From an uncultured Acidobacteriota bacterium (lineage in GTDB: Bacteria > Acidobacteriota > Thermoanaerobaculia > Multivoradales > UBA5704), in assembly GCA_963795735.1 (NCBI GenBank), contig CAWCIU010000008.1:1751836-1815835 (forward strand): a stretch of 64,000 bases of DNA, written 5' to 3'. Positions 2 to 52,568 of the stretch are shown here, piece by piece; the first letter of the stretch is position 1, and each line of letters begins with the position of its first letter. The translations under genes and the position numbers were made by a program. The notes beneath the pieces were generated by a model. That model was not told the DNA's origin. It was given only the letters and a program-made list of their open reading frames with translations, and made no database searches.

Positions 2-355
2 GTCCTCTCCCGCCGGTCGATCGACTCCCGGCTGGACAAGATCAACAACGTCGAGCACCGGCAGACCCTCTGGGGAAGGCTCTTCCACTATGGCGACGTC
101 GAGATCGACACCGCCAGCGAGCGGGGCGAGACCGTGTTCCCCAACATCTCCCATCCGCTGGAATTCAAGAACGCCATCCTGGCGGCGGCGGAGCAGTATC
201 GTTCCGCGGGCGCCGGGAACCGCATGCCGCTCGCCGCGCCCGCCGGCCCTTCCGGCGCCGAGCGGCTGCGCCAGCTCAAGACCCTGCTCGACGACGGCCT
301 TATCTCCCCGGAGGAGTTCGAGGCCAAGCGCCGGGAGCTGCTGGCCCAGTTGTAG
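2..355 (+). CDS. PH-domain (bPH_2/YdbT-like) protein with C-terminal SHOCT domain, 5'-truncated at window edge
   Basis: Frame 2 is open from position 2. It reads ...RLDKINNVEHRQTLWGRLFHYGDVEIDTASERGETVFPNISHPLEFKNAILAAAEQ, typical of bacterial PH domain proteins. It ends with SHOCT-like DDGLISPEEFEAKRRELLAQL. Confidence 0.5.
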   Translation, partial: VLSRRSIDSRLDKINNVEHRQTLWGRLFHYGDVEIDTASERGETVFPNISHPLEFKNAILAAAEQYRSAGAGNRMPLAAPAGPSGAERLRQLKTLLDDGLISPEEFEAKRRELLAQL

Positions 356-4097: not shown

Positions 4098-4156
4098 GGG
4101 AGCAACCCCGGCGTCCTTCCTCCGTATACTCTCCAGCGCTCAACAGGAGAATCCCC

Positions 4157-19048: not shown

Positions 19049-19051
19049 GGC

Positions 19052-19971
19052 TCAGGCGCTCTTCCGCCTCTTGGTGGCGGCGGGTTTGTGCGCGGCCTTC
19101 TTGGCGGGCGCTTTCTTGGCCGGCGTTTTCTTGGCAGCGGACTTGGAGGCGGCTGCCTTGGCGGGCGCCTTGCGACCGGGCTTGCCCCCCTCCTCGACGC
19201 TCTGCTTGAGCAGGGCCATCAGGTCGATCACGTTGCTGCGGGGCGCCTTCTCCGCCTTGGCAGCGGGCTCCGGAGACTTCTCGAGCTGGCCGGCCTCGAC
19301 CCGCTTCTCGATCATCTTCATCAGGTCGTCGCGGTAGGTGTCCTTGTACTTCTCGGGGTCCCAGGCGGAGACCATCCCCTCGACCAGGCGCTCGGCCATG
19401 TCGATCTCGCGGTCGCTGACCCCCTGCTTGCCGGCGGGGACGTCGAGCTCGGAGGGGTCGCGCAGCTCGTGGGCGTAGCGCATCAGCTCGAGCGTCAGCA
19501 CGTCGCCGCGGGCCACCACGGCGGCGAGGTACTCGCGGGTACGGATCACCACCTTGGCGATACCGACCTTGCCGGTGCGGCGCAGGGTCTCGCGCAGCAG
19601 CGCGTAGGCCTTGGAACCCTTCTTGTCGGGACCCAGGTAGTAGGGCTTGTCGAAGTAGAGGGGGCTGATCTCCTCGAGGTCCACGAAGTCCACGATGTCG
19701 ATCGTCTGCGTGGCCTCGGGGGCGGCGCCCTTGAGGTCGGCGTCCGAGAGCACCACGTACTGGCCGGACTCGAACTCGTAGCCGCGGACGGTTTCGTCCC
19801 ACGGCACCTCCTTGCCGCTCTCCTCGAGACCCGCTTGTAGTGGATGGGCGACATCGTCTTCTTGTCCAGCATCTTGAAGCTGATGTCGTTGCGCGTCTCG
19901 GCCGCGTAGAGGCCGACCGGGATGTTGACGAGGCCAAAGCTGATGCTGCCCTTCCAGATCGCTCGCGCCAT
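19052..19971 (-). pseudogene. ku: Ku protein (NHEJ) with an apparent -1 frameshift (N-terminus MARAIWKGSISFGLVNIPV in one frame, remainder from PWDETVRGYEFE in another)
   Basis: The Ku N-terminus is in ORF 19546..20052 and the rest in ORF 19052..19807. The junction is near 19815-19830. Restoring one G in tcgaggagagc (to tcggaggagagc) gives ...IHYKRVSEESGKEVPWDE. Confidence 0.7.
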
Positions 19972-29500: not shown

Positions 29501-30018
29501 TACCGGCGCACGCTCGTCCAATCCGCGGCTTCCGGCGGGGCCGTCTCCGTCAGGAACCGGTCGAAATCCGCCAGCGATCCAACGACAGGGCCATCGCCGG
29601 CCATCGGCTCCAGGCACTCCCGGCTCATCCACGGAAGCGCCTGGGGAGACCCTTGCAGGGAGCCGTCGGGAAGGACCAGGGCGGGTATCCAGAGCGGGAA
29701 GTATCTTTTTTTGGCGTCGCCCTTCTGAACGGTTCCGTGCTGAAAATCGCGTGCGATCGTCATGGGAGCGATCAGGATCGGCACGTAGCTCGGCGCGGCG
29801 GGCCTTTCCTCCTGGACGGTCTGCGCCCCGGCGCGAGCGCCCCGCTCGCGTTCCGCGCACCAGAAGATCTTCTGGGTCAGGGCTTGCGGGAGATTGCCGC
29901 CCACGATCTCCAACGGATGAAGAAGAAACGCGCCGTCTTCGCTCACGACGGGCGAGCGCAGGTCCGCGTCGGCAAGGCTGTTGCGCCAGTACCGGATCAG
30001 CGCCCGGGTCCGATCCAT
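26572..30018 (-). CDS. Superfamily-1 (Upf1/DNA2-like, COG1112) helicase fused to C-terminal PLD-family HKD nuclease; Mokosh type II (MkoC)-like candidate defence protein
   Basis: Walker A GPPGTGKTT, LIVDEAGQ, VVGDLHQIEP, TVHTFQGAE, VAASRAKDSFLVFGD. C-terminal HSKTLAVDDHWIVEGSFNWLS HKD motif. Confidence 0.7.
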   Translation of the reverse strand: MDRTRALIRYWRNSLADADLRSPVVSEDGAFLLHPLEIVGGNLPQALTQKIFWCAERERGARAGAQTVQEERPAAPSYVPILIAPMTIARDFQHGTVQKGDAKKRYFPLWIPALVLPDGSLQGSPQALPWMSRECLEPMAGDGPVVGSLADFDRFLTETAPPEAADWTSVRRYASQMLQAVAHCVPSALVLDGFRVLDQQGVVLLWKDEKGVGRPLIELYDEVLGRDSTPRLLGSFAAAEEPAAAPSAHDLGRETLATRHCGQMGRSFPLSPSQRQAIHCALPLAAGRILAVNGPPGTGKTTLLQSVVASLWVEAALGDREPPVIFACSTNNQAVTNILESFAAAACEGSDPLAERWLPDLGAYGLHLPSADKFKEAKYQQAFPGNPWRGLPESMENRAYVERAEAFFVTRARTVLPRERCGSVKEIVRHLQERLVAVQGELAACIGEAREVQAWRTRYGCLGTEEARRRIDQDRESLEARMAEEAALYDEVLAAEGAIPLWTNLLAFLPPVRRHRDRHLSMPFLRRRREPPPVHGPDGARSLLDALRKTLDALKSQIPELRPWQELEARFAARVEELQDNRSDFQALGKEALERPELILDLLDCGPRHRLFLLAGRYWEGRWLLEMERLLASDQRLDRRSRSACEERFRRFAKLTPCLVATIHRSPKVFDSFDPGRERNVPMFDFLDLLIVDEAGQVTPEVGAAAFSLAKRGLVVGDLHQIEPVWGIGPSIDTANLRKAGLETDLDGGEDAIAHRASRGSLMLMARRATAVTREDDRGLFLGEHRRCVPEIIRYCNELVYKNRLRPLRPSKQERILPPLGWAHITSPEEISSGSRRNPGEARAIADWLARHRDDLERHYEAPIERIVAVITPFAAQRWVLAGAFKAQGLPAIKAGTVHTFQGAESPVVLFSPVYSLASTQKIPHRLFFDAGPNLLNVAASRAKDSFLVFGDLRLFDRNKPHLPSGLLGRFLFESPDHEITDVEAAQHLVGMEDTNRISTLAGHREMLSRALTRSTDRVLVVSPFLTERALEADGIPEAVGAARSRGVQVCVVYSVDLNQGVRKASALKAAEGLRQAGAEVVASNRMHSKTLAVDDHWIVEGSFNWLSAVRDEGDRYQRYEASICCEGPGARRLIQSAWREVLGRDSP

Positions 30019-31358: not shown

Positions 31359-31748
31359 CTAGGAGGAATCGCGGTCGTGGTAAAGGCAGCCCAGGGCGTC
31401 GAGGAGGGCCGCGAGGTCATTCTGGACCTGGTCGTTGGTGAAGCGAAGGACCCGGTAGCCGAGAGCCTCGAGGTTCGCATCCCGATTGACGTCATGCCTG
31501 ATCTGGCGTTCTTCTGTATGAATGCCGCCGTCGATCTCCAGGACAAGCCTCATCTCGTGGCAGAGGAAGTCGGCGACGTAGGGTCCCACGGGAGCCTGCC
31601 GGCGGAATTTCAGGCCGAGGAACCGGCGGTCCCGCAGGTGGTCCCAAAGCATCTCCTCGGCCTGGGTGGAGGCGCGCCGGAGCCCCTTCGCGCGAAGCAC
31701 GGCACCAGGATTGGAAACCCGCACCGCAAAAGTATCCCACAAGCGCAA
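31359..31748 (-). CDS. DUF559 endonuclease-domain protein (Vsr-like fold), cargo of a MITE-like inverted-repeat element
   Basis: MLWDHLRDRRFLGLKFRRQAPVGPYVADFLCHEMRLVLEIDGGIH...LEALGYRVLRFTNDQV matches the DUF559 family. The gene ends 4 bp from repeat A and starts (TTG/GTG) ~7 bp from repeat B. Confidence 0.8.
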   Translation of the reverse strand: MRLWDTFAVRVSNPGAVLRAKGLRRASTQAEEMLWDHLRDRRFLGLKFRRQAPVGPYVADFLCHEMRLVLEIDGGIHTEERQIRHDVNRDANLEALGYRVLRFTNDQVQNDLAALLDALGCLYHDRDSS

Positions 31749-38063: not shown

Positions 38064-38165
38064 CGATCGTTTCCCGCCGGCGGTCCCCCAGGGAGGGGGC
38101 CAGCGCCGCGAAGCTTATCCGACCGGAAGACGCCGGCGCCGTGTCCGCCGGCGCGCCTTCCGCCA

Positions 38166-38360
38166 AGGTTGGCGCAGAGCGCGTGAAGCTTGGCGCGGAG
38201 TGCGCGAAGCTTGGCGGGGAACGCGTGAAGGTTCGCGCGGAAGGCGTGAAGCTTGGCGCAGAGCACGCGAAGCTTGGCGCAGACCGCGTGAAGCTTGACG
38301 TGGAGCGCGTGAAGCTTGGCGCAGAGCGCGTGAAGGTTGGCGCGCTCTGCGCCAAAGCGA
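38166..38360. repeat. Tandem array of ~9 x 21-bp units (consensus ttGGCGCAGAGCGCGTGAAGC, each containing AAGCTT), ending in a perfect palindrome ggcgcgctctgcgcc
   Basis: Seen directly: ggcgcagagcgcgtgaagctt ggcgcggagtgcgcgaagctt ggcggggaacgcgtgaaggtt ... Period is 21 bp, i.e. two helical turns. Confidence 0.8.
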
Positions 38361-38415
38361 AGAAAGCGCCTTCACCCTGCCAGGAGCGGAGCCCCGGCCG
38401 CACCTTCCCTGCTTC

Positions 38416-38583
38416 TCAGCAGCAGATGGTGACCCTGCAACTGTGGCAGGCGGTCTTGCACGAGGTATCGAAGGAATCGCAGATGGCAGCGGTACGACCG
38501 ACCGCCCAGCGGAGCCACTCGCCGGTGTCGAGCGAGCTCAGAGTCTCCCGGTGCAGGGTCAGCTTCTTTTGGCTCTTCTTCAT
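38416..38583 (-). CDS. bacteriocin/RiPP-like precursor peptide (55 aa): leader MKKSQKKLTLHRETLSSLDT..., Cys-rich core ...AICDSFDTSCKTACHSCRVTICC
   Basis: Strong RBS aaggagg 6 nt before the ATG. Not in the ORF track because it is under 60 aa. The leader is conserved with the neighbouring peptide. 7 Cys in the last 22 residues. Confidence 0.6.
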   Translation of the reverse strand: MKKSQKKLTLHRETLSSLDTGEWLRWAVGRTAAICDSFDTSCKTACHSCRVTICC

Positions 38584-38770: not shown

Positions 38771-38998
38771 CTACTGGGCGCAGACGCACCAGGAGAAGGC
38801 GTTGGAGTCGGCGCAATGATTGGCGTCCCCCGAGGCGCAGAACTGCTCGTTGCAGTACGTGTACGACGCACCGCACACGTTGACGCTGTCGCACCCGGGT
38901 CCGCTCAAGGTGCCGCCGATGACGTGCCCGAGGGCAGGGTCCGTCAGATGCCGCAAGGTCTACCGGTGGAGAGTCAGGCTCTTCTTCAGCCTCTTCAT
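38771..38998 (-). pseudogene. second bacteriocin/RiPP-like precursor with in-frame TAG in leader: MKRLKKSLTLHR*TLRHLTDPALGHVIGG-TLSGPGCDSVNVCGASYTYCNEQFCASGDANHCADSNAFSWCVCAQ
   Basis: RBS ggagga plus ATG at 38998. The TAG sits at the codon that is GAG (Glu) in the paralog. Downstream is a double-glycine-type leader end (VIGG) and an 8-Cys core. The ORF-track call 38771..38956 starts at an internal TTG. Confidence 0.55.
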
Positions 38999-39527: not shown

Positions 39528-41597
39528 TTGCACATCTTCATGACTTCACGCCAGTCAACATCTAGTCTCCAGAGCCGAGAGATACTGCTTCTTGAGGATA
39601 ACTCCGGGGCGTCGGAGAGGCGACATCAGGTCGGCGTCTCTCGTCAAATCGTTCACTCTACCATTACCATCAGGGTGCACCGAATAAGCGGTACATCTTC
39701 GCAACTAGCTGCGAGCAGGACCTACAAAGTCGGAACCTTATCCGGCGAGCGCAATGGGCGCATCCAACTCGCTATGCGTCTCCTTGATCGGGCTAAGCCT
39801 AAGAAGGGCTGCGTCGTCGCAGCTGGGACATCCTATGGCTCTGCGGCGACCTTTTTGAGGGCGCTGTCCAATATTGGTCTGTCCTTCGTTGTTCAGGTGA
39901 GGCCCAGCACATTGCTTGACGTGCTCGGAACGAAGGCTAAACTAAGCACGGCCGGGGAGCTACTGGCTGGAGGCCAATGGGAGGCGGTGACGTTGCCACT
40001 GCTGGACGGGACAAAAGTGGACTATGTAGCTGCTAAGCTGGCAGATGTCGACCTAACCATAGGTCCCGCCAAGCTCTTTGCCGCTCGTGTCGGTGGTGTA
40101 GAGGGCGCTCAGCGGAGTACGATCATCGGCCTCTCTTCCTTTGACGCGAGCATAAGTGAGCTTGTACAGATCATCGGCTACACACGATGGATAAGGCCGA
40201 TCTCCCGGAGACAGGACAGAGCGGCACGGGGGGTAGCCGGACGTGCGGAGCCAGAAGGTAATGCAGCAACTCTGAGAGCCCGCGCCAATATCACATCAGC
40301 TCGCCAGCAGGATGATCGTGCCAGAGAGGGGAATATGTACGTCCTCGGGTACTCCCCAAGAGGAGTTCTGCAATCCTGTGGGTCAACTCTTAACGTCGCA
40401 GAGTTGTTTGCGGGCGCCGGTGGTATGGGGCTTGGCTTTCTCTTGGCAACCGGAGGAGAGGGACGCTACCGTCTCGTATATTCCGGAGAAGTGAATCCAA
40501 TCTACGTCCAGACGCTTCGAACGAACCATGAAGCATTACCGGGCGTCGTGGGCGGAGCCGGTGAAGCGCTTATTCCCGAGTATACGGAGGCGGCGGATCT
40601 GCGACGAGAGGAAACCCTGGCTAGCGTCAAAGAGGTCGGGTGCCAAAAGGGTGGCATTCACGTGCTCATTGGTGGCCCCCCATGCCAAGGATTTTCCATG
40701 GCTAATCGCAATTCTTGGCACGGTCGCAACCCGCACAATCGCCTCGTGGATGTATTTTTTAAATACGTCGAAGAGCTCCGCCCAAAAGTCTTCCTAATGG
40801 AGAACGTGCAGGGGATCCTCTGGACTCCTAAGGGAGGTAGGCCGGTCTCGGTTGTTGACGTCATAGAACGTCGTATGCGAGCGGCAGGCTACATAGTATT
40901 TCCAAAGCTACTCGACGCAGTATGGTATGGCGTGCCTCAGCATAGGACTCGCTTCTTTCTAATGGGACTCCACCGTGATCTTGGATATCGCTCCGACAGC
41001 TTTGGAGAATGGGGGCCGTTTCCTGTTCCGACGCATGGCGGAGAGTCCTCGCCGTGGGTAACGACAAGGGAAGCACTTGCCGATCTTCCCCGCATAGGCA
41101 ATGGTGCGTCGGTGGAGGATCTCGCCTATATTGACCCTTCGCCTGCTGCGCTAAAACAGAATCCATTCCTCAATTACATCAGGGATGGGGCTGAGCGTGG
41201 TTTGGTCTTTGACCACGTAACCTCTAGGCATGCTGAATATGTAATCGACCGCTATCGTAAAATACCGCCTGGCGGTAATTGGGAAAGCATCCGCGAAGAA
41301 CTATCTAACTACGCCGATGTTTCGCGCACCCACAGCAATATTTACCGTCGCCTGCGATGGGACGAACCATCTATTACGATTGGACATTATCGCAAGAGTA
41401 TGCTCGTGCACCCTAGTCAGCATCGAGGTCTCTCCCTTCGCGAGGCGGCGCGGCTGCAATCGTTTCCCGATTGGTTTCACTTCGCGGGAACAGTAAGCGG
41501 GCGTGATGGAGGAATTGTTCATAAACAACAGCAACTCGCTAATGCTGTCTGCCCGCTGGTAACGAAAGCTGTTGCAGAGTTCATCCTGCATCTATGA
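39528..41597 (+). CDS. DNA (cytosine-5)-methyltransferase with ~280-aa N-terminal extension of unknown function; DruM-like
   Basis: Motif I AELFAGAGGMGLGF, motif IV PPCQGFSMANR, ENV motif FLMENVQG, later QSFPDWFHF. Lower GC than flanking DNA. Confidence 0.8.
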   Translation: MHIFMTSRQSTSSLQSREILLLEDNSGASERRHQVGVSRQIVHSTITIRVHRISGTSSQLAASRTYKVGTLSGERNGRIQLAMRLLDRAKPKKGCVVAAGTSYGSAATFLRALSNIGLSFVVQVRPSTLLDVLGTKAKLSTAGELLAGGQWEAVTLPLLDGTKVDYVAAKLADVDLTIGPAKLFAARVGGVEGAQRSTIIGLSSFDASISELVQIIGYTRWIRPISRRQDRAARGVAGRAEPEGNAATLRARANITSARQQDDRAREGNMYVLGYSPRGVLQSCGSTLNVAELFAGAGGMGLGFLLATGGEGRYRLVYSGEVNPIYVQTLRTNHEALPGVVGGAGEALIPEYTEAADLRREETLASVKEVGCQKGGIHVLIGGPPCQGFSMANRNSWHGRNPHNRLVDVFFKYVEELRPKVFLMENVQGILWTPKGGRPVSVVDVIERRMRAAGYIVFPKLLDAVWYGVPQHRTRFFLMGLHRDLGYRSDSFGEWGPFPVPTHGGESSPWVTTREALADLPRIGNGASVEDLAYIDPSPAALKQNPFLNYIRDGAERGLVFDHVTSRHAEYVIDRYRKIPPGGNWESIREELSNYADVSRTHSNIYRRLRWDEPSITIGHYRKSMLVHPSQHRGLSLREAARLQSFPDWFHFAGTVSGRDGGIVHKQQQLANAVCPLVTKAVAEFILHL

Positions 41598-41598
41598 C

Positions 41599-43596
41599 AT
41601 GAGCTCCTTCGAAAGGTATACCCTCTGGAACTATATGTTGGCGGAGCAATGCCTGCTAACGGGTTCTAATCAAGGCGCTGTACTGCTCACGGTAACGCCG
41701 CGGATCCTCGCTGCTGCGTTGGATGAGGCTAAAGAAGGATTGCAATCACCTGAGGAGGCTGAGGCGGACTTCGTTACAGCTGTAACATTTGTTTATAAGG
41801 AACATGTGCTGCGAAGGCCAGAAAGGTTGCGAGCTTTAAAGTCGTCGGATAAGACAGAGGTTCCCTTAAGTGTCGGGTTCCTCGCTCTTTCCGTTCTCGC
41901 TGCCTACCGTATGCGTACTGATGGTGAGCGCACAGGACGGGCCTATTATGCGAGGCTTGGCGAGATGGTCGGCTGTGGGCTAGTTGGTAATTTTCCCCTA
42001 GGGTTTGATCCAGATGCATTCGTGGAATTATGGGATGAGCTGGCGCAATGGCTCGAAACTCAGTACGGCCGACGGCTTGTCCTTCCTGTGGCTGGGGGTG
42101 TGCAAAAGTTCGTAGCCTACCCTCTTGCACATGTTCCATTGCGACGAGTGGACATTGATCGACTACCGCAGTTCTTTGATTCCTACGGTTACGAGCCAGG
42201 GATGCGCGCTCCGTTGGATTCGCTTGCCTACGATCTCTATAAAGGAGCCGGTCCTTGGCGACATCTAACGAGAGTAGGTCAACGTGCTCTGGAAGATCCG
42301 GGCCGTCGTCCTTTCGTGATTCGGCAAGTCGCCCATGAACTCGAGCACTGGGATGGCTGTCGAACTGACTCATACGGCACGCGGATAGCCACCATCGCAT
42401 TGTGGATGGACATCCGTCGACGGCGGGTTCAACTCTCCTTGCTCGCCAGACGGCCCCAGGGCTTTCCTGAAGAAATTGAGAATGAAGATCTTGTTTTTGT
42501 TTCAAGCCAAGAGGGATGGTACGAGCCAATCCTGCTCGGGCCCGATGACGGTGCTCTTCTCAGTGAGGGTCTTCGAATAGACGCCTGTGCATCCGGCAGT
42601 CGCTGTCTTCTCCAGCTTCGTGGATTCACTGTCGTTCCGTTAACGCCCTCTGAAGAGTATGCGGGTCTTGTTTCGGATTCCGTCCTGCGCGCGGGCACGC
42701 GATGTGCGGTGCTCTGTGCGGAATCGATGATTGAGGATGTTTCTCGATACCTTGAGTTGCTGAACAACGGGCCCGTTTATCCTCGCCGCGATGAGAACCT
42801 ACCTAAAGGCTGGTGCCTGTTCACCGATGTCGAGCTGTCTTCCGATGCCGCTCCGCCGGTTGGCCTCGAGCGTCTCCGGGCCGAGGCCAGTATTGCTCTG
42901 GTCCCTGTGGGAGGGCTGCGCCTCGGGCGTCGTTGGACTTGGCTGGAAGGTGCATCTGCGTGCCTCAGGATCGTCGGCGCTCGTCAAGGGCTAGAAGTAC
43001 GCGTCGATGGGCAAGAGGCGAAACTGGACAGCGAAGGACATCTGCCTGCCGCTCTCTTGAGGGCCGAAGGAACGCATGTTGTTGAGGTCGGTAACCGGTT
43101 GAGACAACTGATCGCTGTACTACCTGGCGCCGTGAATCCGGAGTGCAGGTCTTGGGAATGCAACGAGCCAATTCTCAGCCGGATTCCCGTAGCAGTACCT
43201 GAGGGACATTGGGCTGTTATTGGGTCCGTACCTGGCGAACTCGCAACCGTATTTGCGTCTTCCGAAGGTGCGCTCATCCGGCCAGACTTCTTTGCCCGGT
43301 GGGCAGTGAAGATAGGTACTCGTCGTAGTGCAACCGCGCTTCATCTCCATGACGTGGGTGCCTCTTTAATGGCCGAGTGGGATAGGGATGACGTAACAAG
43401 GATTCAAGCCCCGTGTTTACGCGCGGGGTTTACTTCGGCTCAGTCGTGGGCGGAAATAATCTATCAGGCCGGAATTCGCAGACCGCATCTCGTGTGTACA
43501 TTAAAGTGCCAAGTCCAGGAGCTTGCAGCTGAATGGCGACGCTTAATGGAGAAGGCACGCTCTGTGAAGCGGGAGATAAAGAGGGGGCGCCGGTGA
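41599..43596 (+). CDS. hypothetical protein (665 aa), DruF-like position in Druantia type II-like operon
   Basis: The ATG lies 2 nt after the MTase stop. No recognisable motifs. Confidence 0.5.
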   Translation: MSSFERYTLWNYMLAEQCLLTGSNQGAVLLTVTPRILAAALDEAKEGLQSPEEAEADFVTAVTFVYKEHVLRRPERLRALKSSDKTEVPLSVGFLALSVLAAYRMRTDGERTGRAYYARLGEMVGCGLVGNFPLGFDPDAFVELWDELAQWLETQYGRRLVLPVAGGVQKFVAYPLAHVPLRRVDIDRLPQFFDSYGYEPGMRAPLDSLAYDLYKGAGPWRHLTRVGQRALEDPGRRPFVIRQVAHELEHWDGCRTDSYGTRIATIALWMDIRRRRVQLSLLARRPQGFPEEIENEDLVFVSSQEGWYEPILLGPDDGALLSEGLRIDACASGSRCLLQLRGFTVVPLTPSEEYAGLVSDSVLRAGTRCAVLCAESMIEDVSRYLELLNNGPVYPRRDENLPKGWCLFTDVELSSDAAPPVGLERLRAEASIALVPVGGLRLGRRWTWLEGASACLRIVGARQGLEVRVDGQEAKLDSEGHLPAALLRAEGTHVVEVGNRLRQLIAVLPGAVNPECRSWECNEPILSRIPVAVPEGHWAVIGSVPGELATVFASSEGALIRPDFFARWAVKIGTRRSATALHLHDVGASLMAEWDRDDVTRIQAPCLRAGFTSAQSWAEIIYQAGIRRPHLVCTLKCQVQELAAEWRRLMEKARSVKREIKRGRR

Positions 43597-44489
43597 AGTG
43601 GGACTTGCTGCTTGAGTGGATGACACACATGGGCTCGGGCCACTGGGGTGCATTCCGCGAGGCCGTGGCGGAGCTTGCCGACCCCGATGATCCTGAGATG
43701 CCGGTGCTGGCCCAGAAGCTTCGTATTGCTCTTTCGGACCTTGGCCACGTGGATTTTTTCGTTGATGGGCCCCGACGCTGGCAGGTACTGCGGCCGGCCT
43801 TAGTTGGCTTGGCTGGTAGCAACGCGCACCTGTTCGTAGGCGGTCGTACCCGGCATCTTGCCGAGAAGTTGACATCGAGCCTGCTGGAAGGTGGAGCGTC
43901 GGTATCCATCACAAAAATCAATCCCGGGCTTGCACGTATCTGCCTGGAGGGCCCACAAGAGATTCTGCGCGCGACCGCCAAAGACCTCGGGCTTGAATAT
44001 GTGCCTGTAGCCTCAGCTCTGCTTGCTTCCCGACTTCTGCCGCTGCGGCATACGATCGAGTGGGCTCCTGCTCGTCCAGAGCCGATCAACTGGGCCGTAC
44101 GATCGTGGTCGTTTGAGAGCAAAGCGTGGATTCATGGCAGGTTCGCGCGTACTGCACTAGAGTACACTAACCGGCATGGGGCAAGTAGATACATGATCGA
44201 TCTTGGCCATGCCGGCCTTCGGGACTTCAACAAGCGCGTATCCATTTACGGGGCGGCTTTTTTGAAGGGTAGGCGGATTATCCGCTACTGCTTCGAGAGA
44301 GAACGCCTTCTGGTACCCCGTTGGGCTCCACTCCCGGAGCCTTATTCCCGTGTGGCGTGCTTGGCTGGCGGGCAACTCGCCACCGTTCAGGAAGATGATC
44401 TTGTCTTTGAATCCGTCACCCCCAATATAGCGTCGATGCTCTTGATTGCACTAGGACAGGGGTATCCAAAGCACGGAGATGTTTTATGA
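43593..44489 (+). CDS. hypothetical protein (~298 aa), DruG-like position
   Basis: GTG start overlapping the upstream stop (GTGA) with RBS agaggggg. The stop overlaps the next ATG (ATGA). Confidence 0.5.
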   Translation: MKWDLLLEWMTHMGSGHWGAFREAVAELADPDDPEMPVLAQKLRIALSDLGHVDFFVDGPRRWQVLRPALVGLAGSNAHLFVGGRTRHLAEKLTSSLLEGGASVSITKINPGLARICLEGPQEILRATAKDLGLEYVPVASALLASRLLPLRHTIEWAPARPEPINWAVRSWSFESKAWIHGRFARTALEYTNRHGASRYMIDLGHAGLRDFNKRVSIYGAAFLKGRRIIRYCFERERLLVPRWAPLPEPYSRVACLAGGQLATVQEDDLVFESVTPNIASMLLIALGQGYPKHGDVL

Positions 44490-47400
44490 ATGATCCATTT
44501 TTTACATTCCACCAGCTTCGGGAGACCTACCTTCGGTATCTGGACAGCCCTTTTCGCCTCAGGTATAAGGCACTGATGGAGGAGCGTCGCACTCTCCTTG
44601 ATCGGGATCGACAGCTCTACCGAGAACCTCTCTTTGAGCCAGTCGTGCCGTATGAGTCATCGAAATTGACCATGCGAGGTGCGTGTTCGCATCTCGGGGT
44701 TTCATCTGATGTCGCAGAGTATCTGGATACCGGTGGCCTCTTTCCGTCGAGTCGCGAACTCTTCCAGCATCAATTGGATGCTTGGGAATCTTCGCGCAAG
44801 GGTGATGCCGTGATCGTGACGACGGGTACAGGGTCCGGGAAGACGGAGTGCTATCTGCTCCCAGTGTTCGCCTACCTCGTTGAGGAATCGACAAGATGGG
44901 GTGCGCCATCGGCACGCTCGCCTCACTATCTCTGGTGGTCTCACCCACGGCAGCAACGTATCCCGCAGCGTGCCCACGACACTGGTCGAGCTAAGGCTCT
45001 TCGCGCACTTTTTTTGTACCCGCTTAATGCGCTTATCGAGGATCAGCTAGGGCGGATACGCACGGCTTGTGATGGTCCCAATGGACGGCGGTGGCTGACG
45101 AACTGCCGGGCCGGAAACCGTTTTTGGTTCGGGCGCTATACGGGTGCCACGCCTGTTTCGGGGCCCCAAACCAACGCTAAGCGACAAGAGTTGAAGCGGC
45201 GCCTGCAAGACATAGAAGATGAGTGGGATCGTGCCCGACTTTCCGCTGCCCGATCCGGTAACGATGACATTCTCTCCTATTTCCAAGACCCTGATGGAGC
45301 GGAAATGTGGTCTCGCTGGGATATGCAGGAGGATCCGCCGGACATTCTCATCACTAACTATAGCATGCTTAACATTATGTTAATGAGGAGCCTGGAGAGT
45401 GACGTATTCGACCAGACGAAGGCGTGGCTCGCGCAGGATCGCGACAGGAATGTGTTTCACCTCGTTGTGGATGAGCTCCATACCTATCGAGGCACACCCG
45501 GAACTGAAGTAGGCTATCTGCTTCGCGCATTGCTGCACCGCCTCGGCCTAACTCCGGACTCGCCGCAGCTTCGAATTATTGCGACAAGTGCTTCGATTGA
45601 TGCAAATGATCCAGGAAGTACCGAATATTTGGAGGAATTTTTTGGGAGAGACCCATTGACCTTCAAGATCATCGAAGGGAAGCGGACTGCCTTCTCAAGC
45701 GGAAGCGGCACGCGAAGTGCTCAGCCCTTCGTTGTCTTCGGACAGGGGCTCGAGGAAGGAACTCTCGCTACTGCCGTCGCACGCCTCGCGGCTGATACAG
45801 GTGTTATACCGCGAGAGTCGAGTCCCGAGCGTCGGCTGGCCGAGGTACTCAGCACCACCGGTGTTATGGAGCTGGTGCGTTGCGAAGGAGAGCAGGGACC
45901 ATTTACGAGCACGCGCCTTGGAGAGTCCCTCTTCGGGACAGATCCCGATGCAGGGGTAGCTACCCATGCCATAATTAGGGGGCTGATCCTCGCGCGGGAG
46001 GTACGGGGTGGGTTAGAAGTCGCTCCTCTTCCCCTCAGAGTACATTACTTTTTTCATAATGCTGGGCGGCTTTGGGTCTGCGTTAATCCACAGTGCTCTG
46101 GACGTACAGGGACCACGTCACCGGGTGCCGAGGTGCCTCCGGTTGGTAGACTCTATGTTGAGCCGCGGCCGCGCTGCGAAAACTGTAATGCCCGCGTACT
46201 CGAGCTTCTATATTGTCAGCCGTGTGGAGAGGTTTTTGTTGGTGGCTATCGTGCCGAAGATTGCAACATCAATAATGCATGGTTTCTATCGCCTGACTTT
46301 CCCGACCTGGAGCATGTCCCAGACCGGTCGACCTCACCAAAGAGGATTCACATTGAGTACCTTGTTTTCTGGCCCGCAAACGGGCGACCATTGGTGCGCA
46401 GTAATCATGCGGGCCCATCTTGGGGGTGGCAGCAAGACGGGCAGGCAGGCTATCAGTGGCGCCCGGCCTCGCTCGACATGGTGGAAGGCCGCCTCTCTCT
46501 AAGCCCGCCCCGGCGCTCCACTAGCCCATCCGAGATAGCAGGTTATGCCTTCATTGCTCCTTTGGCTCATGCCGATGCTTTTCCTGCAAAGTGTCCCCAC
46601 TGTGCGGCAAACTGGGGCAGGCGCCTTGGTGTTAAGTCTCCGATCCGAGATCTCGGATCTGGTTTTCAACGCATCATGCAGATTCTCGGCGACGCACTCG
46701 TACGTGAGATTCCTGAAGGACCGGGCCGGAAGCTGGTTCTTTTCTCAGATTCCCGACTTGATGCAGCGAAGCTCTCAACGGGGATCAAGCTCGCACATTA
46801 CAGGGATACTCTCCGCCAGATCGCATTTGAGACTCTTGGTACGGCGGGCACTGCGGCAAAGCGACTTCATCAGGAGAATCAGGAGATATCTCAGCAGGCG
46901 ATTGAGCTGTACGCCTTGCTACAGAAGCGGGAGGCGGAAGGCCTCTCCGACCGAGAGAATGCACGCCGGAAAGAGCTGATGAGCGCCCTTCCTGGAAGCA
47001 TCGTTGGGGATCTTACAAAGTACGCAGTGACAGGTGGAACTCCTCCCAATGTTCTCGTGCCTCCGGTGCCTCCTGGGGCTCTCATATTCATGCCCTTCCG
47101 ACAGCTCATCGATCTTGTACGTACGCAATTGTTCTCCAAGGGTATAAACCCGGGCGGCCCGTTGCCATCAGTCGCGACATACCAGCCTCAGCGAAGTGGA
47201 CCAAAAGCCTTGTGGACAAATCTTCTCGACTGGTCGACAGCTCAGCCAAACTATCAGGCCGGTCTGCAGCCTCTGGAGCGGAACCTTCAAGCGAGCATCG
47301 AGGTCTCTCTTCGCGAGAACGTTATATCCAGCGTTCTCTTTGCATCAGCGGCAAGAGACTTCGAGTCTCTGGGGCTCGGCTACTTGTGGACCAGCAACGT

Positions 47401-50020
47401 TCCTCCCTCAACTACGGTTCGGCAAGCAGCGGCAAGCGTCGTGCGTATTCTTGCGCAGAAGTGGCGTTGGACCGGGTCCGATGCCCAAGGCAGTGGCCAA
47501 GCGCCAGCCTACGTGACAAGCTACCTTGAAAAGGTCTCTATGTATCTTGGTATAACCGCAGGTGACCTGCAGCGTGATGTCGAAGATTCTCTGGGTCCTT
47601 GCCTGGACCAATGGCTCGTACGTCCCGATTCGATGATAGTTGTCAGTCCACGACCTCACCACGATGGCACGATTGATATGTATAGGTGCGGCCGTTGCGG
47701 TTGCTCACACCTTCATGCTTCGGGCGGGTTCTGCATCGCGTGCCATGCGACGTTGCCTGCTGGTCCAGTACGGCACGACGTGACCGGTACTCCAACAGAT
47801 TATTACGAGTACCTGGGGCGATGCCTGGAAAGGCCATTCCGTCTTAATTGCGAGGAGTTGACTGGCCAGACTAACCGAGTAGATCGGCGCCTGAGGCAGA
47901 GGCGATTCCAAGAAGTATTCATGGATGATGAAGTCGAGGTGGCAAGTGGCGTTGACCTTCTGAGCGTGACGACTACCATGGAAGCTGGTGTCGATATCGG
48001 CGCTTTGCAGGTAATCGCTCTGGCGAATATGCCGCCGGTCCGCTTCAACTATCAGCAACGAGTTGGGCGAGCAGGCCGGCGTGGGCTCGGGCTTTCCGCC
48101 GCTCTCACGCTATGCCGCGGAAGGAGCCATGACGACTACTACTTCGAGCGGCCTCACCTCATCACTGCCGAGCCGCCTCCTCGCCCGTACGTGGACGTGA
48201 GTAGGCCAGAAATCGCTCGACGCGTAATAAACAAGGAGCTGTTGCAGCGCGCCTTTGCAACCCTGAATCTTCCGTACAGCGGAGACAATGTCCACGGCGA
48301 GTTCGGTTTGGTATTGGATTGGCCGGGCTATCGTGGTCAGGTCTTGGCATGGGTTAACGCCAATAGCCGGATGGTGGAAGATATCTGCCAAGTTATTTTG
48401 CGGCGCACTAAATTAAACTCGGCAGCGGCTTTCGCCTCTATAGTCCGCCATGTTACCAATGATTTGATTTCCCAGATAGACCACGTTGCGCAGAATAGTC
48501 TCGGCCACGACGCTCTCAGCGAACGACTTGCTTCTCACGGCGTGCTTCCTATGTTTGGGTTCCCGACCCGAGTTCGTTACTTATTCCACGGGGGGCCGCC
48601 TCGTGCCGATGCCGGCTGGCCTCCTGAACGCGGCGTCGTTGACCGGCAACTCGACATTGCTATTAGCCAGTTCGCTCCCGGAGCGCAAACTGTGAAAGAC
48701 GACCAACTTCTAACATCCGTCGGCGTAGTCAACTACTACCCCTCTGGACGAGCCATTGTCACAACTCCGAATCCGCTTGGGGACTTTGTACCGGTAGGTG
48801 TCTGCCGAAGGTGCCAAGCGTTGGTGGAAGATCCGGCACCGGTCGGAGGTTGCCCGTACTGCACTGCCCCTCGCGGCAAGGACGACTATAGGACGGTAAA
48901 TCTCTCCGAGCCTCCCGGGTTCATGACTTGGTGGTCCGTCGAAGCGGAGTACAACGGTGTTTTCGAGTTTACACCGCGTGCACTCAGGGCTCGAATGGGC
49001 CGTGCGCCAGGAAATCCTGCTAGGCTCCAAAACTTTGAGGTCGACCAAGGACCAGCGCGAATTCACCGCATTAACGACAACGGCGGCGAAGACTTTCTCT
49101 TTCAGAAAATTGCCGTCGGCGACATCTGGATAGTTGATCAGGCGTTTCAGCGAGCCCTCCAAGATCTCCCTGCCGATCGGCAGCGAGCCATCCCCCCGCC
49201 TCAGTATGACAGGTCCGCTGCGCCGCTCACTCGTGCTCTTGCATCGATCGGCAGCACCGACGTGCTTGTGGCAGGCATTCAGAGCGTTCCCGTTGGTATC
49301 ACCTTGAATCCTGCCAATCCGGAGTCGCGGGCGGCCTGGTACTCTTTCGGCTTCTTCTTACGAAGGGCCGCAGCGGTTGTTCTTGACGTGGCAGAAGCCG
49401 AGCTCGACGTTGGCATTCAGCCCATGATGGACATGCAGACGCCCTTCGCGCCGCCTTCTGCGCGCATCTTTATGTCCGACAGCTTGGAGAACGGGGCAGG
49501 CTATAGCACACACCTCGGAGAACCTTCAAGGTTCGAGGAACTTCTCCGCTTCATGATGGGGCAGGGAACATCGGGCGCATCAAAAGAATTTTTCGACCCG
49601 CTTGTCGGTACTCCTCATGAACACGAATGCTCAAGCTCCTGCCATCGTTGTCTGCGTGACTATGGCAATATGCCGTATCATCCGCTTCTCGATTGGCGTC
49701 TCGGGCTGGATATGGTCCGCCTCGCTCTGGATCATGCCGCGCCGATGGACCTGTCGCAGCCATACTGGGACAGCCTCTTGCAACGTACGGCTCCTCCATA
49801 CTTTAAGGGATTGAACTATACACAGACTACCCTCGCTAACCTACCGGCTGGCTACGACCCAGGGACGGGCGATGTCGTTATTCTCATCCACCCGCTCTGG
49901 GATCGTGATCCCGCTAATCTCCGGCCTGAGATTGTTGCGGCTGTAGCACAAGCGGAATCGCGGGGGTGGCGCTGGAAGCTCCAGACCATCTTCCGAGCAG
50001 TCCGGTTCCCCTACGAATAG
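44486..50020 (+). CDS. 1844-aa DEXH helicase with C-terminal DUF1998/MZB domain; DruE-like (Druantia) defence helicase
   Basis: Walker A VIVTTGTGSGKTECYLLP, DEXH VVDELHTYRGTPGTE, helicase C motifs (QQRVGRAGRRG), C-terminal Cys cluster CSSSCHRCLRDYGNMPYH. Homologous to the MrfA-like helicase at 410..3574. Confidence 0.75.
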   Translation: MNDPFFTFHQLRETYLRYLDSPFRLRYKALMEERRTLLDRDRQLYREPLFEPVVPYESSKLTMRGACSHLGVSSDVAEYLDTGGLFPSSRELFQHQLDAWESSRKGDAVIVTTGTGSGKTECYLLPVFAYLVEESTRWGAPSARSPHYLWWSHPRQQRIPQRAHDTGRAKALRALFLYPLNALIEDQLGRIRTACDGPNGRRWLTNCRAGNRFWFGRYTGATPVSGPQTNAKRQELKRRLQDIEDEWDRARLSAARSGNDDILSYFQDPDGAEMWSRWDMQEDPPDILITNYSMLNIMLMRSLESDVFDQTKAWLAQDRDRNVFHLVVDELHTYRGTPGTEVGYLLRALLHRLGLTPDSPQLRIIATSASIDANDPGSTEYLEEFFGRDPLTFKIIEGKRTAFSSGSGTRSAQPFVVFGQGLEEGTLATAVARLAADTGVIPRESSPERRLAEVLSTTGVMELVRCEGEQGPFTSTRLGESLFGTDPDAGVATHAIIRGLILAREVRGGLEVAPLPLRVHYFFHNAGRLWVCVNPQCSGRTGTTSPGAEVPPVGRLYVEPRPRCENCNARVLELLYCQPCGEVFVGGYRAEDCNINNAWFLSPDFPDLEHVPDRSTSPKRIHIEYLVFWPANGRPLVRSNHAGPSWGWQQDGQAGYQWRPASLDMVEGRLSLSPPRRSTSPSEIAGYAFIAPLAHADAFPAKCPHCAANWGRRLGVKSPIRDLGSGFQRIMQILGDALVREIPEGPGRKLVLFSDSRLDAAKLSTGIKLAHYRDTLRQIAFETLGTAGTAAKRLHQENQEISQQAIELYALLQKREAEGLSDRENARRKELMSALPGSIVGDLTKYAVTGGTPPNVLVPPVPPGALIFMPFRQLIDLVRTQLFSKGINPGGPLPSVATYQPQRSGPKALWTNLLDWSTAQPNYQAGLQPLERNLQASIEVSLRENVISSVLFASAARDFESLGLGYLWTSNVPPSTTVRQAAASVVRILAQKWRWTGSDAQGSGQAPAYVTSYLEKVSMYLGITAGDLQRDVEDSLGPCLDQWLVRPDSMIVVSPRPHHDGTIDMYRCGRCGCSHLHASGGFCIACHATLPAGPVRHDVTGTPTDYYEYLGRCLERPFRLNCEELTGQTNRVDRRLRQRRFQEVFMDDEVEVASGVDLLSVTTTMEAGVDIGALQVIALANMPPVRFNYQQRVGRAGRRGLGLSAALTLCRGRSHDDYYFERPHLITAEPPPRPYVDVSRPEIARRVINKELLQRAFATLNLPYSGDNVHGEFGLVLDWPGYRGQVLAWVNANSRMVEDICQVILRRTKLNSAAAFASIVRHVTNDLISQIDHVAQNSLGHDALSERLASHGVLPMFGFPTRVRYLFHGGPPRADAGWPPERGVVDRQLDIAISQFAPGAQTVKDDQLLTSVGVVNYYPSGRAIVTTPNPLGDFVPVGVCRRCQALVEDPAPVGGCPYCTAPRGKDDYRTVNLSEPPGFMTWWSVEAEYNGVFEFTPRALRARMGRAPGNPARLQNFEVDQGPARIHRINDNGGEDFLFQKIAVGDIWIVDQAFQRALQDLPADRQRAIPPPQYDRSAAPLTRALASIGSTDVLVAGIQSVPVGITLNPANPESRAAWYSFGFFLRRAAAVVLDVAEAELDVGIQPMMDMQTPFAPPSARIFMSDSLENGAGYSTHLGEPSRFEELLRFMMGQGTSGASKEFFDPLVGTPHEHECSSSCHRCLRDYGNMPYHPLLDWRLGLDMVRLALDHAAPMDLSQPYWDSLLQRTAPPYFKGLNYTQTTLANLPAGYDPGTGDVVILIHPLWDRDPANLRPEIVAAVAQAESRGWRWKLQTIFRAVRFPYE

Positions 50021-50550: not shown

Positions 50551-50787
50551 ATGGGAGTCTACAACGTTCACGAAGCCAAGACCCACCTCTCCCGTCTGCT
50601 CGAGCGGGTGGCCGAGGGAGAAGAGATCATCATCGCGAAGAGTGGCCGGCCGGTCGCCAAGCTGGTGCGCGTGGCGGTCGAGCCGCGCCGGCCCGGACGG
50701 CTGAAGGACCGCATCCGGGTCGGCCCCGATTTCGACGATCCCCTTCCGGAGGAGGTCCTGGCCGCTTTCGGCGGGGACAAGGAGTGA
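50551..50787 (+). CDS. Phd/YefM-family antitoxin
   Basis: MGVYNVHEAKTHLSRLLERVAEGEEIIIAKSGRPVAKLV is typical Phd/YefM. Confidence 0.75.
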   Translation: MGVYNVHEAKTHLSRLLERVAEGEEIIIAKSGRPVAKLVRVAVEPRRPGRLKDRIRVGPDFDDPLPEEVLAAFGGDKE

Positions 50788-51164
50788 GGCTCCTCCTGGA
50801 CAGCCATGCCTTCCTCTGGTGGCTCGCCGAGGACCCGAAGCTCAGCGCCGGAGCCCGGGAGGCGGTCGCCGATCCCTCGTCGATCGTCCATGTCAGCGCC
50901 GCGAGCGTCTGGGAGCTTGCGATCAAGGCGTCTCTCGGGAAGCTGGATCTCGACGGCGCGGACCTGGTGGAGGAGATCGAGGAGAATGACTTCGTCGAGC
51001 TCCCCATGAGGGCGAGGCACTCGCTCGCCGCCGCCACCTTGCCCCGCCATCACGAAGACCCCTTCGATCGCATGCTGATCGCCCAGGCTCAAGTGGAAGG
51101 CCTGACGGTCGTCACCCGCGATCCCGCCTTTCGGGCCTATGGGGTCGCCATCCTTCCGACCTGA
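50784..51164 (+). CDS. vapC: PIN-domain toxin VapC
   Basis: GTG start overlapping the antitoxin stop (GTGA). LLDSHAFLWW...ASVWELAIK...PFDRMLIAQA is typical VapC. Confidence 0.75.
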   Translation: MRLLLDSHAFLWWLAEDPKLSAGAREAVADPSSIVHVSAASVWELAIKASLGKLDLDGADLVEEIEENDFVELPMRARHSLAAATLPRHHEDPFDRMLIAQAQVEGLTVVTRDPAFRAYGVAILPT

Positions 51165-51229
51165 GCGCCAGGACGACGCGCCGGCGGAACCCGTCAGGCC
51201 GACAGCTCCCGCTTGCGGGCTTCCAGCTC

Positions 51230-51760
51230 TTCCATTCCAGCGGTGCCCCCCTGGATCTCCGTCATCGCCCTCTCTGCGCGCGCCATTGCCCTCCAGGCGT
51301 GCGCCTTCACCAACCAGGGGGACCTCATTGCCCTCTGGTGGTGCGTCATCGCCCTCTGGTTTTTCCTTCCGGCCCCCTGGTTTTGCGGGGTTGCCCACTG
51401 GAAATTCGACCCGGCCCTCTGGGTTGGCGGCTCCGCCCTTTAGTTTGATGGCTCCGCCCTCTGGTTTGACGGCGTGCCCCCTTCAGTCCGCGATACGTAA
51501 ACCCAGAGGGCCGCATCGCAAATCCAAGGGGCCGGCTCGAATTTCCAGGGGGCAGAGCCGCCGTCTCGTGGGGCGGAGCCGTAACCTCAGGGGGCCGATA
51601 CCGCAAACCAGGGGGCCGGGCTGGAAAAGCAAGGGGCGCGGCCGGAAATCCAATGGGCGCAGCCGGAAAACCAGGGGGCACGGCGGCCGCTCGGGTTCGC
51701 GCTGCGGGATTTCCAGGGGGCGCACCGGTCCTGGGGTCCCGGAGGAGGCCGCGCGGCCGC
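51230..51760. repeat. ~530-bp composite repeat: left array of ~11 x 21-bp units (cGGCnnnGCCCTCTGGTTTnA) and right array of ~11 units in inverted orientation (TnAAACCAGGGGGCnnnGCCg), centre near 51490
   Basis: Seen directly: ...cggctccgccctctggtttga... | ...aaacccagagggccg, aaatccaaggggccgg, atttccagggggcag, aaaccagggggccggg, gaaaaccagggggcacgg... 21-bp periodicity on both arms. Confidence 0.75.
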
Positions 51761-51827
51761 CGGCGTTTCCCCCTGGCGGCTCGCCCAGGCGGCTCCCGGG
51801 CACCGGGTTCGATAAAGGAGGAGAGAG

Positions 51828-52073: not shown

Positions 52074-52484
52074 ATGCCGGATTACAGGAAAGGCGACCGC
52101 CTGCGCTGGGAGGGAACGGAGTACCGCGTCCTGGACGAAGGCGTGGGAGGGGAGCCGGGGGAGGGGAGAGGGTCCTTCTACGTGCTCCGGGCGGTGGACA
52201 ACGCTCTCGACACGCTCCGGGTCCCCGTCCGGGAGCTGGAGGCCCTGGGAGAGGAGGCCGGGAGGATTCTCCTGCGGATGGCCGGGGGCGCCGCGCTCCA
52301 GTGCCGGCAGACGGCTGGCGGCTGCAGCTTCTGGTTTCTGGACGGCTCGGTCGTCGGCGAGGGCGGGCCCTGGGAGCTGCTGGGCCGGCGATTGATCACG
52401 GCCGTTGCCGGAGCCGAGCCCCTAGCCCTGACGGAACGGGGCCGCGCGGTCGCCGGACGGCTCCAGGGGGAGGAAGGGGCGTAA
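52074..52484 (+). CDS. hypothetical protein (136 aa), translationally coupled to the Cys-rich peptide gene (TGAATG)
   Basis: The ATG lies immediately after the upstream TGA. No recognisable domain. Confidence 0.4.
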   Translation: MPDYRKGDRLRWEGTEYRVLDEGVGGEPGEGRGSFYVLRAVDNALDTLRVPVRELEALGEEAGRILLRMAGGAALQCRQTAGGCSFWFLDGSVVGEGGPWELLGRRLITAVAGAEPLALTERGRAVAGRLQGEEGA

Positions 52485-52504
52485 AGGGACATAAGGGACA
52501 GCAG

Positions 52505-52555
52505 GGACAGCAGGGACTTTTCTGGGGTCCCTGAAGTCCCTGCTGTCCCTTGGGT
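52505..52555. terminator. bidirectional hairpin between convergent genes (stem agggacagcagggac / gtccctgctgtccct, 15 bp)
   Basis: Perfect inverted repeat seen between 52074..52484(+) and 52569..53549(-). A T-run sits in the loop region. Confidence 0.55.
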
Positions 52556-52568
52556 CCCTTGTTTCTTC

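Follow-up and report, generated by a model that had tools for sequence, protein, structure and literature searches.

What a half-kilobase block of inverted 21-bp repeats may be doing immediately upstream of an operon for a small secreted Cys-rich peptide is the question raised by this locus. The sequence-only reading of the region had described about 11 units followed by about 11 inverted ones at 21-bp spacing, and had left two options for them, a very long hairpin or cruciform and two opposed arrays of same-face protein-binding sites. The window, by which we mean the whole 64-kb stretch of DNA analysed here, is chromosomal with a GC content of about 70%; its p136 cluster is found on a 2.4-Mb contig, and an identical 1.3-kb Logan contig was also found.

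An inverted array of 21-bp units

Laid out in a 21-nt register, the region between 51246 and 51721 contains 23 copies of a 21-bp unit, about half of them on each strand (Table 1). The two runs announced by the sequence-only reading are indeed present, as 12 units on the plus strand and 11 on the minus strand, and neither arm contains a single indel, even through the degenerate units at 51309 and 51700. Units 1-4 and 12 of the left arm and the right-arm unit ending at 51700 are degenerate in this layout, and only the better-preserved sub-runs of the array are recovered by TRF and by a seed-based repeat finder. The arms stand head-to-head, the degenerate 12th left unit overlapping the first right unit, and converge at about 51484-51490, in agreement with the centre first placed near 51490. 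Coordinate arithmetic gives an offset of 5 bp (modulo 21) between the core centres of the right and left arms, which for B-DNA at 10.5 bp per turn would correspond to about half a turn. The location between the VapC gene and the promoter region of the 51828-52484 gene pair had also been given correctly, the array ending 106 nt before the ATG. The array region has a GC content of about 68% with no AT-rich stretch, and no tRNA or Rfam element overlaps it. While CRISPR arrays consist of identical 24-48-nt repeats separated by unique spacers of similar length, this array is made of contiguous 21-mers with a 9-bp core and without spacers.

The consensus of the 23 units is GCCCcCTGGnttTnCGgCncn (GCCCyCTGGwtTTnCGGCnnn), that is the motif of the sequence-only reading in another frame. 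Conservation is focused on a 9-bp core, GCCCyCTGG, and on a CG at positions 15-16, and a single short T/A patch recurs in each 21 bp. Pairwise identity among the units spans 0.24 to 1.00 depending on the position: it stays at 0.70-1.00 at positions 1-4, 7 and 15 and reaches only 0.24-0.45 at non-core positions, with positions 10, 14, 17, 19 and 21 near random. The units are old and diverged. The variance among positions amounts to 0.052, as compared with 0.011 +/- 0.004 under a uniform-decay null in which the mismatches of each unit are scattered at random (z = 11.5; 0/2000 simulations), and uniform neutral decay of duplicated units cannot give such a pattern. It is what one would expect from a protein that reads the 9-bp core sequence-specifically and makes another contact about 10 bp further on. 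Adjacent units tend to resemble one another more, and a few pairs are nearly identical, such as L8/R3 (19/21), which fits local duplication accompanied by occasional conversion. Since the best dyad within the consensus involves 6/10 positions, the unit is asymmetric and symmetry exists only at the level of the whole array.

Allowing for at most one mismatch, GCCCYCTGGWTT has 8 matches in the 64 kb, all of them within the array, for 1.55 expected, and none of 100 shuffles reached 8. A position weight matrix of the unit gives 18 matches across the window for 18.0 expected and no isolated or paired sites outside the array, hence no sign of a regulon there. BLAST against plasmids and phages and a pattern scan of viral contigs retrieved no similarity to the array, and a pattern scan of metagenomes retrieved one loosely similar array (L156) as the sole plausible match. 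With the loose pattern GCCCNCTGG-N12 repeated three times, at least 117 loci were found in genome contigs, and those inspected are unrelated coding heptad repeats.

Table 1. Coordinates of the array, of its flanking features and of related arrays (window positions unless a relative's locus is named)
Feature	Position	Strand	Remarks
Phd/YefM-VapC toxin-antitoxin cassette	50551..51164	+	upstream of the array here, downstream of the array in L158
VapC (PIN)	50784-51164		Pfam
fpg 3'-end remnant, 41 nt	51194..51234	-	between VapC and array; 34 nt (GACAGCTCCCGCTTGCGGGCTTCCAGCTCTTCCA) match the Fpg gene 3' end of L002 exactly; same gene end in L158
Truncated "unit 0" of left arm	51235..51245	+	complete in L002 and L158 (..CTCGGGATTTCAGCGGCGG)
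Left arm	51246..51497	+	12 units, starts 51246, 51267 ... 51477 = 51246 + 21k; register layout, consensus, L158 orthologous units
Centre, where the arms meet	51477..51497	.	without AT-rich spacer; length equal in L158 orthologue
Right arm, promoter-proximal	51491..51721	-	11 units, ends 51721, 51700 ... 51511 = 51721 - 21k; register layout, consensus, L158 orthologous units
Degenerate outer unit and linker, right arm to conserved promoter-proximal segment	51722..51748	+	
Promoter-proximal segment and pep81 5' leader	51749..51827	+	96-97% identical in L157 and L158; contains GGGCACCGGG..GATAAAGGAGGAG
pep81, 81 aa	51828..52073	+	signal peptide, Cys-rich region, no Pfam family
p136, 136 aa	52074..52484	+	no Pfam family; start codon abuts pep81 stop
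Second 21-bp array	38165-38343	.	AAGCTTGGCGCAGAGCGCGTG x8.5, direct only, then short palindrome
Second promoter-proximal copy (GGAGGAGGCCGTGCGGCCGCC...) and last ~45 nt of pep81	L158 5066-5178		after the array, upstream of Phd-VapC
L160 arrays	L160 4721-4909, 5759-5924, 6371-6477		
L162 array	L162 372-689		15 units, perfect/near-perfect 16-bp palindrome (CCAAACTGCAGTTTGG or CCAAACCGCGGAATGG) + 5 bp
L156 array	L156 4803-5175		42-bp unit x8.9, 93% matches; GCCCCCTGGATTTC-like halves paired in inverted orientation in every unit
GG(C)GCAC(C/T)(T)GG motif sites	window 51795-51815; L160 ~5965-5990; L162 ~55-80 and 770-795; L163 ~70-95		

The array in relatives and other 21-bp arrays of the lineage

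Among the loci of relatives, L158 carries an orthologous inverted array pair at about 4590-5090, upstream of the toxin-antitoxin cassette, as identified by TRF and by reading of the sequence. The aligned units of the two genomes are 87.4% identical (53 mismatches in 420 cells), with 12+11 units in the window and 10+13 in L158, and all indels correspond to whole units: the window has two additional stretches of 21 bp in the left arm and L158 has 42 bp more in the right one. Phase is preserved while copy number drifts, and the arms are not kept equal in length. Between the two arrays, core positions are changed in 9.5% of cells and the others in 16%, a difference of borderline significance (Fisher p = 0.056). 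The divergence of the array (12.6%) is greater than that of phd, vapC and pep81 (2-5%) and close to that of p136 (10%). In both genomes the right arm precedes the same promoter-proximal segment; the array is accordingly kept beside a copy of the pep81 promoter segment in L158, which answers positively the suggestion of the sequence-only reading to look for conservation in relatives. On the other hand, the possibility that it had raised against its own proposal, a degenerate copy of a common satellite lacking positional conservation, does not agree with the L158 orthologue, nor with the confinement of 8/8 matches of GCCCYCTGGWTT to the array.

The order in L158 is array, promoter-segment copy, 3' remnant of pep81, Phd-VapC, intact promoter segment, pep81 and p136. 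The duplicated segment and truncated gene that follow the L158 array are the scar of a rearrangement between the toxin-antitoxin cassette and the pep81 module, and the simplest reading of the two gene orders would be an ancestral module made of array, promoter and pep81, with the cassette upstream of the array in the window and downstream of it in L158. The fpg remnant designates the left edge of the array as a rearrangement junction; the reading frame of this relic gives rise to a spurious mini-ORF (MEELEARKRELSA). L002 keeps only left-arm units 0-4, as a stump beside fpg, and is devoid of pep81. In L157, L158 and L159, Phd-VapC is followed after 88 nt by pep81-p136, with flanks 96-98% identical to those of the window, and the VapC-pep81 junction of the window shows 580 bp in excess as an apparent indel. 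A mobile insertion of these 580 bp, which we considered, was overturned by the orthologous array of L158, located 0.8 kb upstream on the other side of the cassette. As these three loci have an intact pep81 without adjacent array, the array is not indispensable for pep81; furthermore, there is no array at all near the pep81 homologues of L161 and L163. Judging from gene order and alignment, the array is a resident, orthologous and lineage-conserved element, and appears to be neither a mobile insertion nor a common satellite.

Every noncoding tandem array with at least 5 copies, whether in the window or in the loci of relatives, repeats every 21 or 42 bp. One of them is in the window itself, at 38165-38343 with another unit, and the earlier statement that no similar structure occurs elsewhere in the window was thus wrong. 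Its unit is made of a near-palindromic 16-bp sequence (GCGCGAAGCTTGGCGC) followed by 5 bp; it starts 66 nt downstream of a Cys-rich leader-peptide gene and ends 101 nt upstream of a minus-strand gene of 198 aa. The orthologue in L002 (about 4125-4235) has fewer and strongly diverged units next to a flanking gene that is 92% identical. This second array is the same phenomenon as the inverted arrays, from a different family. Small Cys-rich peptides with a KKLTLHRETL-type leader are encoded on the minus strand at 38410-38583 and 38776-38998, the latter with an in-frame TAG after codon 12, and they look like RiPP or bacteriocin precursors.

Three further loci complete this set. L160 contains two copies of an array of TCGCC[TT/CA]GGTGGGCGAGGAGC, together with a duplication of the downstream leader region; the end of one copy is 186 nt from a lanthipeptide-like leader-peptide gene and that of the other 76 nt from a pep81 homologue, each copy preceding its gene. 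A third array of different sequence (GAGCAGGCCCAGCTCGAAACA x5) comes after the pep81 homologue, overlapping a remnant ORF that resembles a leader peptide. The array of L162 lies between a pep81 homologue and another gene for a Cys-rich peptide with a signal peptide, and that of L156 between divergent membrane-protein genes on a 53-kb soil contig of 70% GC. The relatedness of the L156 array to the inverted arrays of the window is at most suggestive, given that the scan that retrieved it selected for the 12-mer. With the exception of L156, the other arrays of the lineage mostly adjoin genes for small Cys-rich or leader peptides, and all share with the pep81 array an intergenic position and the 21/42-bp period, with 8-15 units and a degree of dyad symmetry. 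They differ from it by other unit sequences, by being unidirectional and by a symmetry within the unit (a 15-16-bp palindrome and a 5-6-bp spacer).

Proposed phased protein-binding sites and the competing explanations

The best-supported reading, whose chances of being right we put at about even, is that the array is a set of phased protein-binding sites abutting the pep81 promoter region. It would consist of two opposed blocks of about 11 sequence-specific sites spaced by exactly two helical turns, each 21-bp unit offering a bipartite recognition signal, namely the 9-bp core GCCCyCTGG and the CG about 10 bp further. This spacing would allow a monomer to touch two successive major grooves on one face of the DNA, and the head-to-tail succession of units would align many copies of one protein on one face per arm. 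The right, promoter-proximal arm may control pep81 from upstream, as an array of operator or activator sites, and the binding protein would be encoded outside the window. Opposed sites, one of the two options of the sequence-only reading, fit the data better than a hairpin because of the strict 21-bp phase, the indels in 21-bp steps only and the position-specific conservation, from which we infer binding itself and a regulatory role. Support also comes from the promoter-proximal segment that follows the right arm in both the window and L158, and from the 21-bp arrays of relatives that precede genes for small Cys-rich or leader peptides, at a distance of 76-186 nt from the start codon. Several observations count against protein-binding sites, i.e. 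the fast divergence of the array (12.6%), the borderline contrast between core and spacer, the lack of evident transcription factor and of other sites in the window, the absence of a sigma-70 match, and the existence of pep81 without array in relatives.

Phased arrays of binding sites are already known, as iterons, parC centromeres, LytTR sites and AraC sites. Support for protein-binding sites comes as well from the geometry documented for LytTR regulators, which recognize 9-bp direct repeats separated by a spacer of 12-13 bp, that is a period of 21-22 bp (21 bp with a 12-bp spacer), upstream of bacteriocin promoters (PMC2714321). The array resembles the sites of PlnC/PlnD, AgrA and ComE in its 9-bp core with 12 less conserved positions, its strict 21-bp period and its location before a small secreted peptide gene. 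The consensus of LytTR sites is AT-rich, of the ..GTT.. type, and the GCCCyCTGG core is unrelated to it. Furthermore, LytTR sites come as pairs, located upstream of a -35 box, and not as 11+11 in opposed blocks; with its 23 sites, the array is followed by no promoter that a sigma-70 scan could detect near 51722-51827. Neither a LytTR domain nor an AraC, OmpR or other evident transcription factor was found by Pfam among the 50 ORFs of the window (about 49 non-overlapping genes). Sites of the AraC/XylS family (araI1-I2, XylS at Pm) are asymmetric, with two boxes about 10 bp apart, and are repeated at 21 bp centre to centre. The likeness of the array to them, an asymmetric bipartite unit at 21 bp, is a matter of geometry alone, and they differ by having two sites per promoter and by the AraC-family gene, which has no counterpart near the array. 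Membership of the array in either family fails on the consensus, the number of sites and the absence of a cognate regulator gene in the window. Iterons and parC sites are protein-binding repeats of 11-22 bp that are in phase with the helix, accept changes of copy number and in some cases surround a promoter as two blocks; the array likewise is long, tandem, helix-phased and variable in copy number, but it is inverted instead of direct and resides at a chromosomal, syntenic locus without rep/par genes or AT-rich region. Finally, REP/BIME elements, whose unit is an imperfect palindrome of about 20-40 nt, REPINs and foldback MITEs are also intergenic repeats with inverted copies able to fold back, from which the array differs by its non-palindromic unit, its lack of dispersed copies in the window and its status of orthologous resident. 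To our knowledge, 23 sites in two opposed blocks far exceed any described operator, a further point against protein-binding sites. Our literature searches found no description of such blocks before a chromosomal peptide operon, nor of an uncultured lineage in which 21-bp arrays recur next to small Cys-rich peptide genes, and nothing relevant on 21-bp arrays in Acidobacteria or on inverted iterons.

The other option of the sequence-only reading was that the functional form is a folded nucleic acid, either a DNA cruciform or a very long imperfect RNA hairpin which, placed between pep81 and the gene upstream, would serve as a terminator, a stabiliser, an insulator or a substrate of RNase III. Such a fold is thermodynamically possible, its MFE of -314 kcal/mol (z = -7) being more stable than that of shuffles on both strands (z = -7.1 and -5.9), as is to be expected of any inverted repeat, but the data do not support it as a selected property. 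The nearly equal numbers of forward and reverse units, the unit-level dyad symmetry of other arrays of the lineage and the hairpin-like inverted pairs of a similar motif that make up the 42-bp units of L156 do speak for folding. Comparison of all left with all right units in an identity matrix reveals no preferred pairing register, the mean being 11-12/21 at every offset, which indicates that the arms are complementary only via their common consensus. The arms of L158 are unequal (10 vs 13 units), and the predicted hairpin pairs that changed between the window and L158 comprise 2 compensatory and 11 one-sided changes in which pairing is kept, to be set against 16 broken and 35 gapped pairs. 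With arms that are 70-74% complementary and a longest exact inverted match of 15 nt, cruciform extrusion is unlikely. Since, in addition, a pure stem would not require a conserved core and no Rfam family matches at gathering thresholds or at E <= 1, we regard a selected fold as improbable. More weight, although we still think it rather unlikely, has to be given to a functionless and unstable minisatellite palindrome, born from slippage and inversion, persisting by chance and acting mainly as a fragile site that promotes rearrangements. It would account for an array 87% identical between flanks that are 95-98% identical, for the gains and losses of whole units, for the scars at the edges (the fpg remnant of the window, the truncated pep81 copy of L158, the stump of units 0-4 of L002) and for the intact pep81 genes devoid of adjacent array. 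What it does not explain is the retention of the 9-bp core and the CG with the rest near random (z = 11.5), as neutral decay should blur all positions equally, the perfect phase over 23 units and in the L158 orthologue, and the occurrence of several independent arrays in the lineage with the same period and similar positions near peptide genes.

The remaining explanations appear far less probable. A non-autonomous mobile element of the MITE or foldback type, with long terminal inverted repeats of transposase-binding subrepeats, is brought to mind by the apparent indel at the VapC-pep81 junction relative to L157, L158 and L159, and by the ends of Tn7/Mu-type transposons, which carry several sites of about 22 bp inverted between the two ends. 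We hold it to be very unlikely, as the "empty site" is explained by the position of the cassette on the other side of the orthologous array of L158, and this relocated cassette, instead of a presence/absence polymorphism at an otherwise identical site, accounts for the difference. Comparison of the junctions with L157 and L158 reveals no target-site duplication, the left edge being truncated in unit 0 and the right edge degenerate; there is no other copy in the 64-kb window or in the plasmid, phage and viral sets, and a single loose match in metagenomes (L156). Even less likely is an iteron-type replication origin or a parC-like partition centromere belonging to an integrated plasmid or another element. 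Arrays of repeats of about 10-22 bp at helical-turn spacing, sometimes in two blocks, do make up iterons and ParR-type centromeres, and the tandem 17-22-bp repeats at about two turns that characterize origins are found in the array, but Pfam detects no gene for Rep, Par or integrase proteins in the vicinity, the array with its GC content of about 68% offers no AT-rich region for unwinding, the 2.4-Mb contig is chromosomal with neighbours syntenic in relatives, and similarity to plasmids or phages is lacking. Opposed polar sites forming a replication terminus or fork trap were also considered and rejected, the cumulative GC skew showing no turn near 51 kb. Lastly, a protein-coding heptad repeat (21 bp being 7 codons) is suggested by open frames of 230 aa (+) and 106-111 aa (-) across the array and by automatic gene calls in L001 and L158. 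It is hardly credible in view of the codon-position GC of the 230-aa ORF (0.62/0.76/0.69 vs about 0.75/0.45/0.87 in neighbouring genes), no frame being high in GC3 and low in GC2. This ORF has no Pfam match, the substitutions between L158 and the window are spread over the three phases (6/8/7 in the left arm and 9/8/15 in the right one; chi-square about 2.7, not significant), and an inverted array would need to encode two unrelated repeats.

Coming back to protein-binding sites, a broader proposal, which we advance as a doubtful one, is that the pep81 array is the most elaborate case of an undescribed class of 21-bp arrays of 8-23 units that flank genes for small Cys-rich secreted or leader peptides and are read by filament-forming or DNA-bridging regulators, the number of units being an evolvable expression dial. 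Such a class, just as tentatively, would be defined by dyad symmetry at the level of the unit or of the array, by an uncultured high-GC lineage and by a drift in 21-bp steps that is neutral for helical phase. In its opposed-block version, proteins bound to one arm could join those on the other and so close the DNA into a fold-back loop. If these arrays do bind a protein, the one studied here would stand out among regulatory elements by its large size and odd geometry, with about 11 directional sites in each of two opposed rows, which implies a cooperative, filament-like or bridging occupancy where one or two dimers are the rule. That 21-bp arrays recur next to bacteriocin- or RiPP-like peptide genes would then point to a common and so far undescribed control of such genes, which could help to predict when cryptic peptides are produced. 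Moreover, whole-unit changes of copy number between close relatives would offer a natural test of whether repeat number tunes promoter output at constant helical phase.

Genes and other elements around the array

Six homologues of p136 and four of pep81 were found. We considered p136 as a candidate for the protein binding to the array and rejected it, given its 6 homologues only, its lack of Pfam family and an AlphaFold model that is unusable with a mean pLDDT of 47. A sigma-54 promoter was likewise rejected, the sequence GGGCACCGGGTTCGAT picked out by eye having the wrong spacing and no -12 GC. A motif GG(C)GCAC(C/T)(T)GG, which does not match the sigma-54 spacing either, occurs about 20-35 nt before the starts of pep81-family and neighbouring Cys-rich peptide genes (Table 1). 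Downstream, an aldo-keto reductase gene converges on pep81-p136, and between p136 and this gene (52484-52560) the 9-bp repeats AAGGGACAG are arranged in inverted orientation, a structure that is partly conserved in L157 and L003 and is probably a bidirectional terminator.

The array is preceded by a low-GC defence island (39528-50020; 56% vs 70% GC), in which PADLOC matches DruM, DruF, DruL/DruF C-terminus and DruE, resembling Druantia type II/IV; L002 and L158 have other cargo at this site, either IS110 and HNH genes or Vsr and a methylase. Elsewhere in the window, a minus-strand gene (26572-30018) encodes an 1148-aa helicase-PLD protein with a full-length PADLOC match to MkoC of Mokosh, a DUF559 endonuclease-like gene lies at 31359-31748, and the segments 410-3574 and 16259-19807 hold a second helicase gene of the DEAD/MZB (MrfA-like) type and the non-homologous end-joining pair LigD-Ku. 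Finally, MITE-like long palindromic elements with common ends (..CATGTAGCCTGGGGCGCCAGCCCCAGG..) are scattered through the same variable region of relatives, in L002 (9800-9920), L158 (2880-3190) and L160 (5290-5560).
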